From Yuukianura sp. NJ FZ-2021 (Eukaryota), in assembly GCA_046563655.1 (NCBI GenBank), contig CM102286.1:10602001-10666000 (forward strand): a stretch of 64,000 nucleotides of DNA, in the 5' to 3' direction. Below, piece by piece: positions 30,535 to 35,094 of this stretch. The notes below the pieces were generated by a model. That model saw nothing but the letters and a program-made list of their open reading frames with translations, searched no databases and had not been told where the DNA came from. Position 1 is the first letter of the stretch; each line of letters starts with the position of its first letter. The translations under genes and the position numbers were made by a program.

Positions 30535-33500
30535 TTAAATAAACACTTGAATCTTTTCAATGATTGTAGAGTCCATACAAGCATTGCTTGCTAGTATTAA
30601 CTTCTGGCACGCTTCGGACTGAGCAGAAATTTCACAGAAATTGTGAACTACATTGGATTTTTTCAAACCCAAATTGTGAATATGGCGCCAAACTTCTGTA
30701 CAAAACTTCATTTCCGCAGGTTCTTGACGATGGATTGACGACAACACTGCGTCAACTGTAGTTTCGTAAAGCTCAAGCCCTTCCAACTCCAAGATTCGTC
30801 TGCCGTATTCATTAATCAACCAAACCGTAGTTCTCTTTTCTGTTGATTTTCCTAATGCGTAAGTACAACTTTAAAGTTACCGGTTCCGGAAAGTATAAAA
30901 TTCGGTTGAAACCAATTGGAAGGCTAAACAAATCCTCACTATTTTTTTCTTCGGCACTTAGCGTAATAAAGTTTGCAAAACTTTGGGTTTGAAGCAGTGC
31001 ATCAATAATTGTCGGGTGACAAACGTAGTGTTCAGATGCGCCATTTTCTGACGCAATTTCAGTCAAAACTTCTCCAGTCTCTGAAGCCCAACATGCCTTG
31101 ATTGTTCGAAATTCCGGACCAAATACTATTCCAGCTCCAGCAATTTGTGCATAACGGGCATCTATTTCTTGTTGTGGTTTTTGCTGGCAACGACCCTTGA
31201 CCTCGTCAATATCAATTTGAAATTTTTCAGGTACTTTAAATGTCGAAGCAAATGTTGTGGATATGTTTCGTTTGAAAAGACCGTCTTTATACTTTTTGAA
31301 AATTTGTATGTCGTATGACAGTCCATTTTCAGATTCAACTTGTACTGTAGTTGTGTACAGCTCAGCTCCAGTGGCGATGTCTAACGCAGCGGCAATTCTA
31401 AAATTCGTCAGGATCAAAGGGCATTTAAGGGTTCCGCCATCTTGTAAAATTTTACTAGCAGCGGCAAATGCTGTTTCTATGAATGCTGCTGCAGGATAGA
31501 CTGTCAGGCCTGCAACTTTGTGGTCTCCGAAATACGGAAATTCCTTGACACGAAAAAATTGGCGAAAGTTTGAATCTGTGTTGGCGTCGAAATTTCGCAT
31601 CCCAGAAGTGGATGAAGTTTTTCTCACTGATAATTATTTCTGTAGTTGAATGTGTCTGACATGTCGCCTCCTGTGTCATTGTCGCCTTTTCCCACCCAGT
31701 ACGACACTTTCTGGAAGGGATACTTCGGAATTTGAAGATGCCGAATTCTGATAGGCGTTTGGCCTTTCCAGTTAATGTTGTGACCTCTCAAGTACAGTTT
31801 GATCAGTGAATCGTGAAAAGTTAGGTTTGACTCATCGTAACGTCTAGCTGTGGGTGCTAAACATAGATCTGCAGCCGATGTAGCTGGCGTTTGAATATGT
31901 AAAACCAGAAAGTACAGGACTCGGACAAGCTTCTACGAAAGTTTTGTATCCGCCCTCCAGCAACATTTGAATTGCGCGGGAAAATTGAACGGGGTGTCGT
32001 AAGTGCTGTTGCCAATACCCCGAATCAAAGTCGATCCCATTCTCCATAACTTTTGTTTTTGTAGCCGAAGTATACTTGACCGTTGGATTACCACACTTTA
32101 AAAAGTATCCAGCGTTACACCAAAAGCTTCCAAAATCGTTTCCACTTGGCGGGAATGAAATGGGTGGCTACTTGAAACGGCAAAACTATCAACGTTCCGT
32201 TTGGCCCAAAATTGATGGAATTGGGCAATTGTTTCAACTGGGCCAGATACAACAATTTCGGAAGCAGAATTTATAGCTGCTACGTCAATCCAACCATTTT
32301 CGTTCAGTTTTAGAAAATTTTCAATCACTGATTTACAATTTTCCTCTGAAGTGGCGATAGCCAACATCGAGCCTTTTTCAAGTTCTTCCACCAATCGGCT
32401 TCTCGCAATGATCAGTTTCAGACCATCTTCTAGTGATAAGACATTAGCAACGATTGTCGCAGGAATCTCACCCAAGCTGTGCCCAATCACAGCTTGAGGA
32501 ATTAGCCCAAAAGATTTCCATAGGTGCGTTAAAGCATATTCCACTGCAACTAGCGCTTGTTGACAGTAGAGTGTTCTGTTCAGAAGTTGCGGAATTCCCA
32601 CAATACTTCGGAAAGTTTAGCGCCATGGTACGGTTCGAAAACTTCATTTGCTTCGTTTAGAGAATTTTCAAAAACTGGGAACGTTGCCGCAAGATTTCGA
32701 AGCATTCCAGGATATTGGGAACCTTGACCAGGGAACAGAAAGGCAATTGGTTGATTGGATGTTTAACTTTTGGCGTAAGCCCAATCTTGGTTATGTAATT
32801 TTTGCAGCAATTCATCAGTTGAAGATGCAGTCAGCGCAATTCTGTGCGTAAAATGTGCTCGTGAAACGTTCGTCGCGTATGCAAAGTCTTCCAGACTTAC
32901 ATCCGAATTGGTTTTTAAGTAATCGATGTATGAATTTGTCAACGCAGCTAAGCTGTCTTTGGATTTGGCGGAAATTGTGATGACAAGACGCCGAGCCGCC
33001 TTTTCAACAGATTTTGGACCGTCAGTTTTAAATTTTGGCGGTTCTTGCAGGATAACATGGACGTTGGTTGCACTCATACTGAAGGAACTGACGGCACAAA
33101 TTTTGTCTTCAGTTGTCCAGGGTGTCAGTTGCGTTGGAATAATGGCGGGAATCAAATCCAGGTTGATATAGGAATTCAATTTCTTCAAATTCAAATGTGG
33201 CGGTAACATTTGATTTTTCATGCAAAGAATTGCTTTGATCAGACCAGCAATTCCTGCAGCAGCCTCGCAGTGGCCAATGTTTGTTTTTACCGAACTTATA
33301 TACAACGGCAATTTCCGATTTTTAGAGTAAACACGTCGAATTGCTTCCATTTCAATTGGGTCGCCTATGCACGGTTAAAAGTCAACGTTAATGAAAAATT
33401 CATAATATTATTTGCAGTATAACTTTCGGAAGTTACCAATTGGAGTTCCTGTTCCATGTGCTTCAATAAACGATACTTGGTGCGGGAGGATACCGACCCT

Positions 33501-35094
33501 TTGTAAGGCGTCCTCGTAAACCAGCGCCTGTGCATTAGCATTTGGTGTTCCAAAACTTCCACTTCCATCATTGTTCATTGCACTGCCGCGCGCAACAGTC
33601 AAAATAGTGTCTCTTGCAATCACTGCGTCTTCGTAGAGTTTGAGAATCAAAATACCACACTCTTCAGCCCTACAAAGACCAATCGCATAAGCGTTTCATC
33701 TTCAAAAAAAAATTTTTTATGGACTGGTGTTATGCGTCTAGTCAATAATAATCGTTAGATTTAGGAACCACGATAAACGAACTTGCGCAGTTAGTAAAAG
33801 TTGCAGACATCGACAAAGATATCAAACAAAAAACGTCGAAAGCGCAATGATGTACAAACAAAATTATGAACTTTCCGACATGAGTTCGGTTCAAGTGGAT
33901 TTTGTTAACAATTTTTCTGATACTGCCACATCGAAAGTGAAAAATGGTTTGGCTCAGCGCAAAAAGGTCGTGCAATGACCCACAGTATACCAAAATTTAG
34001 GAACACGCTTGATCAATTATCACAACAAAAAAATTACAAAATTTTCAAGGCTGGTAACCAATTAGATTGTTGATTTCTACAACAGGTTATTCATTAACGT
34101 TTCTACGTTTTTTGCGAGAATTTTCAAAAATTAAATAATTTGCTATACCTGACAAATCCGTTGGCAGATTCATCAAATGTTTTGCATTTGAAATCTTTGG
34201 AAAGTACAATTGAGTCAGACTGGGTTTCTGCATATTCGGCTGTGAATGGATTTGCACCAATCAGAACCAAGTTCACTCCACCCGCAATTGCCAGTGATGC
34301 TTCTCCGCGTCGAAGACTTTCACAAGCTAAATGAAAAGCAGCAAGCGACGAGGAGCAACCAGATTCTACCGGTAGCGCAGGTCCTATTTTACACATATTC
34401 AGATTTTCGGAATTATAATTCAATTACAACGAAAAGTGAAATCTCTTTTTTACCATGAAGGCCCAAAAAATTTGAAACTCTCGACGCTGTTGCACTGAAA
34501 GCGTTTCCAAGGTAACGGTGAAAAACGTCGCTCACATCCCGTGCAAAAGTGTGCAAAATTCTGTCGTAGTCTGGTTGCCAAAGGCCCACAAAAACTCCGG
34601 TGCGGGACTCTTTCAAGCTCTGTGGGTTAATTCCCGCATCCTCCATACTCTCCCACGTGATCTCTAGAAGTAGGTTGTTGGGGGTATTGTTGGGGGTCAA
34701 TAAGAAGAGCTTCGCGCGGACTGATGCCAAAAAACTAAGCGTCGAATTCGTCTACCTTGCATTTTAAAAAACCCGCGTGAATGTCCGAACCTGAACAAAA
34801 CTGACCGTCAGCTTCTCGTGGTCTTTCTTTGGGGAATGGACGAATTGCGTCTTCACCGCTGCACAAAACGTCCCAAAATTCCGCTGGATTGTTGGCTCCA
34901 GGGAATCGACAACTCATCCGAACAACGGCAACTGCATCACGCGGGATTTTCAAATTATCATCATCCTTTGATTTACTATTGAGGCGCTTGAGCACTTCAC
35001 AACTTTTGCACAAAGCCAAATTCTGGGAATATCCAAAAAAACAAACATTTTTTTTAATCATTTTGGAATACAGTGACACTCCCCTGATTGACAA
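30535..35094 (-). pseudogene. Type I polyketide synthase (KS-AT-DH), intron-containing, with multiple stops and frameshifts
   Basis: KS: [108 protein letters not shown]. GT-AG introns at 34453-34384, 34148-33670 and 33436-33365 restore the KS frame. Confidence 0.93.

Follow-up and report, generated by a model that had tools for sequence, protein, structure and literature searches.

Bacteria-like genes for polyketide synthases (PKSs), interpreted as horizontal transfers, have already been described from a springtail and an oribatid mite, so that the idea is not new. In Folsomia candida, 30 type I PKS clusters were reported, and the genome paper calls most of their genes horizontal transfers (Faddeeva-Vakhrusheva et al. 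2017, PMC5490193). Lin et al. 2024 (PMC10764717) describe few arthropod PKSs and cite a PKS of Folsomia as horizontally acquired. Brueckner et al. 2020 (PMC7542773) place a putative PKS of an oribatid mite within a Streptomyces clade. Here, we analyzed a 64-kb stretch of genomic DNA (the window), whose minus strand carries, at approximately 35061-30538, a type I PKS stretch with ketosynthase (KS), acyltransferase (AT) and dehydratase (DH) domains. The interpretation that we favor, with a probability of about 0.85, is that this stretch is a dead copy, truncated at its 3' end to KS-AT-DH, of a type I PKS gene that is eukaryotic and carries introns, located in a transposon- and satellite-rich part of an arthropod-like genome. 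An earlier note on this DNA (the original prediction) had proposed a candidate domesticated horizontal transfer of microbial-type modular PKS domains carrying spliceosomal introns. The microbial-type domains and the introns, which are real and old, stand; “domesticated” does not, given nine disabling lesions, the loss of everything after DH and the presence of three of the frameshifts in independent contigs.

The domain content was determined by a Pfam scan of 11 open pieces between 35100 and 30538, of which 10 were matched, well above chance expectation. The KS N-terminal domain (ketoacyl-synt) was found in three pieces (E-values from 1e-11 to 6e-19) and the KS C-terminal domain (Ketoacyl-synt_C) in two (4e-12 and 9e-23), the second of which also carries the CurL-like KS-AT linker (PF22621, 6e-21). 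The AT domain (Acyl_transf_1) was found in three pieces (3e-10, 1e-28 and 4e-7, the last being under the Pfam cut-off), and the DH domain in one (PS-DH, 4e-11; PKS_DH_N, 6e-10). On the minus strand, exon 1 (34454..35061) begins with a possible ATG at 35061-35059, although this start is uncertain, and covers an N-terminal linker and the start of KS (ketoacyl-synt, 1e-11 and 2e-13). Exon 2 (34149..34383; ketoacyl-synt, 6e-19) is the KS active-site exon with the motif ESGCSSS, and exon 3 (33437..33669; Ketoacyl-synt_C, 4e-12) opens the KS C-terminal domain and holds the His of HGTGT. The first part of exon 4 (32766..33364; Ketoacyl-synt_C, 9e-23; CurL-like_PKS_C, 6e-21; KAsynt_C_assoc, 5e-13) contains the end of KS, with the His of NIGH and the family motif SSFSMSATN, and the KS-AT linker, and ends at an in-frame TAA. 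It is followed by the AT domain and post-AT linker (31690..32762; GHSLG and HPFHS), where Acyl_transf_1 is spread over three frames, by a linker and the DH domain (30700..31689; HPLLG, a further 10-residue motif and the Asp of another 10-residue motif), and by a post-DH linker (30538..30699), in which likeness to relatives stops at about 30595, the frame closes at 30538 and the gene is cut off.

The exons are separated by exactly three introns, all within KS and each GT-AG after manual setting of the exon ends, in agreement with the original prediction of at least three: intron 1 (34453-34384; 70 nt; phase 1, LGLH G|PALP), intron 2 (34148-33670; 479 nt; phase 2, GFV R|AEEC) and intron 3 (33436-33365; 72 nt; phase 1, within a 12-residue string). 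The coding part is intron-free from 33364 to about 30538. Three protein strings quoted in the original prediction were recovered, a 13-residue one at 34734-34687, a 30-residue one in exon 2 and a 12-residue one that is contiguous solely after removal of intron 3. The catalytic motifs, which had likewise been described as retained, are readable in the read-through translation: the Cys-His-His triad of KS (ESGCSSS, HGTGT and NIGH), GHSLG and HPFHS of an in-line AT, and the DH motifs, a 15-residue stretch and the Asp within a 10-residue stretch. Relatives carry HAFHS at the second AT position. HAFH is the ancestral AT motif of the family and, being associated with malonyl-CoA specificity, suggests that malonyl-CoA was used.

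After splicing, the reading frame is still interrupted by nine lesions, three in-frame stops and six frameshifts, all on the minus strand. The stops are a TAG in exon 1 (34737-34735), a TAA at the end of the first part of exon 4 (32765-32763) and a TGA in the linker/DH part (31626-31624). The frameshifts comprise a short duplication in exon 1 (at about 34686-34665), three events in the AT domain and post-AT linker (at about 32593, at 32100/32099 and at about 31895) and two in the linker and DH part (at about 31573 and 30832). The TAG and the duplication near 34680 had been flagged before, and both hold: the TAG is in frame, and the duplication is real and shifts the frame, with related contigs being 10 nt shorter there. 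The TAA, the TGA and the frameshifts at about 32593, 32100/32099, 31895, 31573 and 30832 are additional to those noted earlier.

We aligned the read-through translation, with an X at each lesion, to six relatives. Each of the seven lesions located after KS falls inside a colinear alignment to all six with zero length gap, so that these sites are lesions and not unseen introns. The TAG and the duplication, both in the N-terminal part of KS, fall where an environmental relative, locus L021, runs straight through. A 37-nt GT..AG segment at about 31911-31875 that would mend the frame at 31895 was considered and rejected, since the six relatives align colinearly through it with similar residues; no GT..AG exists at the 31573 shift. 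A ciliate-type genetic code, in which TAA and TAG are read as amino acids, was also rejected, because there are a TGA stop and six frameshifts as well; it is further opposed by sense codons in related contigs at two of the stops.

The copy is also incomplete. Its nearest relative, the 2023-residue protein P0400, aligns up to residue 922, which corresponds to window position 30595 (with residues 834-922 matched to 30861-30595); for the approximately 1100 residues that follow, the 64-kb window contains no match. Searches by tblastn with 15 relatives that possess the later domains, at E-value thresholds of 1e-3 and 0.1, gave no methyltransferase (MT), enoylreductase (ER), ketoreductase (KR), acyl carrier protein (ACP) or terminal reductase (R) in the window beyond 30595. 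The original prediction had likewise seen no KR, ACP or thioesterase, and none was found. The copy ends after DH, lacking the carrier ACP and the KR of a reducing PKS. Directly downstream of the truncated gene lies a repeat element (28077..30001, plus strand), the ends of which are those of a repeat inserted in intron 2.

The alternative of an undamaged, working gene whose stops and frameshifts are assembly errors was evaluated with contigs assembled from four public runs, three of one sample and one of another study. These contigs represent related copies, 91.5-99% alike to the window, with a best share of window words of 0.48. Five of the nine window lesions are absent from them: they have TCA in place of the TAA and CGA in place of the TGA, an additional G after 32593 and an additional A after 32099, and they omit 8 and 2 nt at 34675 and 34685, where the window has the duplication. 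This difference favors the intact-gene alternative, as do the T5 versus T6 homopolymer at 32100/32099 and the fact that all catalytic motifs are still readable. However, the frameshifts at about 31895, 31573 and 30832 occur in independent contigs of two runs. In record 3 of X1 (31513-32354) the 7 gap letters are accounted for by 6 additional letters after 31664 and one after 32099, and in record 10 of X2 the gap letters are the six after 31664 alone; both records are thus free of indels near 31573, as is record 3 near 31895. Record 1 of X1 and record 9 of X2 (30547/30531-31347) align with 0 gaps and have no indel near 30832. The three frameshifts are common to independent contigs and therefore are not errors of this assembly, and the decay is real. 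In addition, three of the lesions are stop codons produced by base substitution, the 1-8% of substitutions between the window and the contigs identify the latter as different copies and not as a corrected version of the window, the coding part does not extend past DH and neither ACP nor KR is found in the 64 kb, and the listed substitutions show no synonymous excess. The assembly-error explanation is thus largely refuted, and we regard it as very improbable.

The contigs also provide information on copy number and selection. Two different contigs cover 34732-35014 within one run, and in a related copy present in X1 and X3 18-21 other letters stand in place of the segment 31564-32307 (741-744 nt), so that the last part of AT and the first part of DH are missing; together these observations indicate several copies or alleles. 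The listed substitutions that separate the window from the contigs in coding segments number 39, of which 26 are nonsynonymous and 13 synonymous; under random placement, 10.3 +/- 2.7 synonymous ones would be expected. The differences between the window and its sister copy appear unselected, with no sign of purifying selection in these 39 of approximately 199 differences, which argues for a copy without enzymatic function.

The high-copy repeat in intron 2 (33717..34021, outer limits approximate, no strand assigned) ties the gene to its genomic surroundings. Its ends match, in inverted orientation, the ends of the downstream element at 29901-30001 and 28077-28202, the two matches being 126 nt (80%) and 101 nt (85%) long. 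The word depth over the repeat is 2613-11243 in X1 and X2, as compared with approximately 170-280 over the exons, i.e. 10-60 times higher. Contigs of the public runs (records 18 and 21) span exon, intron and repeat, and record 18 of X3 continues into the repeat. A loose end at 33718 was considered as an empty transposon site and rejected, as by eye it shows the same sequence with a small indel.

These observations bear on the explanation that DNA of a bacterium or symbiont, brought in by misassembly or contamination, accounts for the PKS stretch. Its attraction is that the best named matches are all bacterial, but three spliceosomal introns interrupt KS, by which this explanation is refuted. 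The repeat inside intron 2 is present a second time elsewhere in the window and has a high copy number in the runs, the G+C content of the PKS region (0.39-0.41) is similar to that of the flanks, the contigs bridge exon, intron and repeat, and open reading frames (ORFs) of long interspersed nuclear element (LINE) type as well as an arthropod gene share the window. The probability left for contamination is practically nil, and membership of the PKS copy in the host genome follows from the introns, the host repeat within one of them and the LINE ORFs and arthropod gene nearby. A processed, retro-copied pseudogene was rejected too: three introns are kept, two of them at sites common to relatives, so the copy derives from genomic DNA, either as a duplication or as a decayed original. 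This copy has no coding part left after DH, has received a high-copy transposon in intron 2 and has accumulated three stop codons and six frameshifts.

The nature of the host can be judged from a single-exon gene of the GEFmeso/PLEKHG1 type at 58383-61046 on the minus strand (888 residues). Its best named matches are termite, cockroach, stick-insect and orthopteran proteins with approximately 32% identity, whereas proteins from metagenomes and run assemblies reach 60-68%. These matches indicate an arthropod host, and the gap between 60-68% and approximately 32% indicates that near kin of the host are present, unannotated, in environmental data. On the strength of this one gene, the host is probably a hexapod distant from the annotated insects.

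The nearest relatives of the PKS copy itself are also metagenome and run-assembly sequences, 47-62% identical. With the KS C-terminal/linker exon as query, the most identical among the 120 matches listed were P0002, P0004 and P0006 (48-55%); all organism names among these matches were bacterial, cyanobacteria and myxobacteria having 42-48% identity. A search with P0004 added P0393, P0395, P0400, P0433, P0455 and P0497, and the organism names among its 120 listed matches were again all bacterial. In a collection of prokaryotic genomes with one genome per species (185,579 species), the best match, from Moorena, reached 47%. A search of protein representatives with the same exon returned 150 giant multi-module PKSs ranked by summed score and was uninformative on the nearest kin. 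In the relatives, the Pfam order is KS (C-terminal part)-AT-DH followed by MT, ER, KR and ACP, and P0497 ends in a domain of reductase type. Judged from these domain orders, intact members of the family would be iterative, reducing PKSs with one module, KS-AT-DH-(MT)-ER-KR-(ACP)-(R).

The intron sites of the window are shared with some of these relatives. A metagenome scan yielded 78 loci, the first 30 of which were checked for continuity against CurL. In 28 of the 30 the KS-AT region is unbroken, and the split ones are L001 and L021. L001 (57% identical, G+C 0.43) contains GT..AG introns whose positions coincide exactly with those of introns 2 and 3 of the window. L021 (50% identical, G+C 0.49) has an intron at the intron-3 site only; its KS N-terminal part is uninterrupted, also at the intron-1 site, and closely matches the window. 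The recurrence of two of the three intron sites in environmental relatives indicates that the gene has long been eukaryotic. A similar pattern was observed for nine relative proteins, whose open frames begin between 46 residues after and 12 residues before the intron-3 site, six of them 10 residues or less from it; such starts are expected when a prokaryote-style gene caller is applied to an intron-bearing gene.

To place the family, a tree was built from 57 rows, namely the window read-through, the nine proteins, L001, L021 and 45 bacterial or unlabelled rows selected from approximately 230 matches. The KS-to-AT alignment of 956 columns was analyzed with IQ-TREE (LG+G4, ultrafast bootstrap and the SH-like approximate likelihood ratio test, SH-aLRT); the tree is unrooted and was built without animal fatty acid synthases (FASs), animal PKSs or fungal PKSs. 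The 12 intron-type rows form one clade (100/100), in which the window pairs with P0400 (100/100). The 42 bacterial cis-AT rows lie across a branch from this clade (91/94), and three long rows (P0001, Hungatella and Bacillus) fall outside. The tree delineates one family without indicating its donor.

Comparison with solved structures gave a consistent ranking. The KS C-terminal/linker exon scored 157 bits against 7ZMA, 149 against CurL, 82-103 against DEBS, 71 against CTB1 and 60 against LovB, and the AT exon scored 100 bits against CurL; among the 60 rows listed for each of these two exons, no chain was named fatty acid synthase. Exon 2 scored 77 bits against 7ZMA, 61 against CurL, 37-53 against DEBS, 43 against CTB1 and 35 against LovB, while animal FASs reached 31 (mouse) and 28 (pig), about half the CurL value. 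KS is therefore not closest to animal FAS, and the statement in the original prediction that the motifs are nearer to bacterial cis-AT PKSs than to animal FAS is borne out by the scores of exon 2.

Two accounts of the origin of the family were weighed. In the first, which is the most likely, an ancestor would long ago have received the gene from bacteria, and the family would then have acquired introns and turned over through the birth and death of genes; a bacterial source is plausible from the sequence comparisons. In the second, the family would be an old vertical animal PKS lineage, kin to the “animal PKS” of echinoderms, vertebrates and molluscs, with the bacterial likeness reflecting slow evolution of KS. 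Such descent is consistent with the separation of the 12-row clade from all 42 bacterial cis-AT rows sampled (91/94), within none of which it is nested, with intron sites common at about 50-57% protein identity, i.e. old in eukaryotes, and with a best prokaryotic match of 47%. In the supplementary file MOESM11 of Lin et al., which by its numbering was taken as the arthropod KS set and was compared by eye, transcriptome rows with a 22-residue string and LGNAFSAT are present, and arthropod KS rows of this supplement show the same motifs over a 30-residue stretch. On the other side, no named animal protein occurs among the 120 listed matches of 357-2000 residues or the 120 of 873-2781 residues, although many annotated animal PKSs should fall within those lengths; solved animal FASs, fungal PKSs and a Dictyostelium PKS score well under CurL; and Lin et al. 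(PMC10764717) report few arthropod PKSs and treat the springtail ones as transfers. We consider the vertical lineage rather unlikely, while giving it more weight than the intact-gene and contamination alternatives.

Several points weigh against the reading of the locus as a dead copy of an old, transferred eukaryotic PKS. Five of the nine lesions occur in the window sequence alone, and the two 1-nt indels among these five, one of them in the T5/T6 run, could be assembly errors. The status of the TAG at 34737-34735 in the contigs is not visible, with 159 differences unlisted; the comparison used contigs and not raw reads, and these may represent a paralogue or another strain; and the substitution test covers 39 of approximately 199 differences. 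The eukaryote-like label of the nine proteins reflects their frame starts and not introns seen, and the bacterial row P0438 too starts in the middle of KS. With respect to origin, none of the bacterial groups sampled encloses the intron-type clade, in an unrooted tree without a eukaryotic outgroup.

Both the recurrence of intron positions and the grouping of the window with environmental sequences in one clade favor an old family over repeated recent transfers, which bears on the question of whether the polyketides of arthropods come from the animals or from their microbes. As a tentative extension, which is conceivable though short of probable, the pseudogene may mark a large, old and unannotated family of iterative reducing PKSs of arthropods or soil animals. 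Such a family would have the order KS-AT-DH-(MT)-ER-KR-ACP-(R), the motifs ESGCSSS and SSFSMSATN and common intron sites; it would go back to one ancient bacterial acquisition, have diversified through the birth and death of genes and occur commonly in soil metagenomes. No named member was present among the best database matches. If this were true, soil microarthropods would make many polyketides themselves. The copy described here matters little alone because it is dead, but it offers a clean, anchored example of the turnover of bacteria-type PKS genes in an arthropod-like genome, with introns and both a transposon and a gene of the host on one stretch.

The remainder of the window contains further repeats and ORFs. 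A tandem satellite with a 374-bp unit (37.1 copies, 97% matches) occupies 38177-52041, almost 14 kb immediately upstream of the PKS pseudogene. Two reverse-transcriptase ORFs (RVT_1, 6e-19 and 6e-23) on the minus strand, at 14798-17266 (822 residues) and 26406-27986 (526 residues), belong to LINE-type retroelements, the former of which may be nearly intact. ORFs with a single C2H2 zinc finger at 2059-2514 and 54408-55097, both on the plus strand and 52 kb apart, have similar acidic tails and are possibly copies of one repeated element or gene family. The adjacent minus-strand ORFs at 20423-21070 (215 residues) and 22281-22829 (182 residues), for which no Pfam match was found, are alike near their ends by eye and possibly represent a tandem pair of one gene. 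Three consecutive plus-strand ORFs at 17624-19821, one of which has a Lig_chan match under the cut-off (E-value 0.003), are possibly an ionotropic-receptor-like gene or pseudogene.

Among the described systems, the PKSs of Folsomia (PMC5490193 and PMC10764717) resemble the window copy in being type I enzymes encoded in the genome of a soil arthropod, where they occur in many copies; their authors scored them nearer to PKS than to FAS and regarded them as horizontally acquired. The likeness is one of description and not of sequence comparison, the window copy differs in being a pseudogene, and no Folsomia protein was found among the 120 and 120 matches listed. The KS of the oribatid mite (Brueckner et al. 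2020, PMC7542773) is likewise bacterial-type, is expressed by a soil microarthropod and was read as an old transfer, as is proposed for the window. However, it was reported to be nested in a Streptomyces clade, whereas actinomycete rows are among those farther from the window (29-43%, versus 42-48% for cyanobacteria), and the window clade is nested within none of the bacterial groups in the tree. Animal FASs and the animal FAS-like PKSs (AFPKs) share with the intact relatives the form of a single-module KS-AT-DH-...-ACP megasynthase in an animal genome; in sequence the animal FASs are more distant, as the exon 2 scores of 31 (mouse) and 28 bits (pig) against 61 for CurL illustrate. Fungal highly reducing PKSs (HR-PKSs), such as LovB (PDB 7CPX), have the domain order of the intact relatives, KS-AT-DH-MT-ER-KR-ACP, and the reductase end of P0497 adds to this resemblance. 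By analogy, the relatives likely work iteratively like these fungal enzymes, although in sequence LovB reaches only 60 and 35 bits, as against 149 and 61 for CurL. The best named and solved relatives are CurL and the cis-AT modules of cyanobacteria and myxobacteria (PDB 4MZ0), which have the same KS-AT didomain and CurL-like linker (CurL, 149, 100 and 61 bits for the KS C-terminal/linker exon, the AT exon and exon 2). In contrast to these intron-less modules of multi-module assembly lines, the window family is single-module and intron-bearing, forms a clade of its own, and differs from the usual motifs in carrying ESGCSSS and SSFSMSATN.

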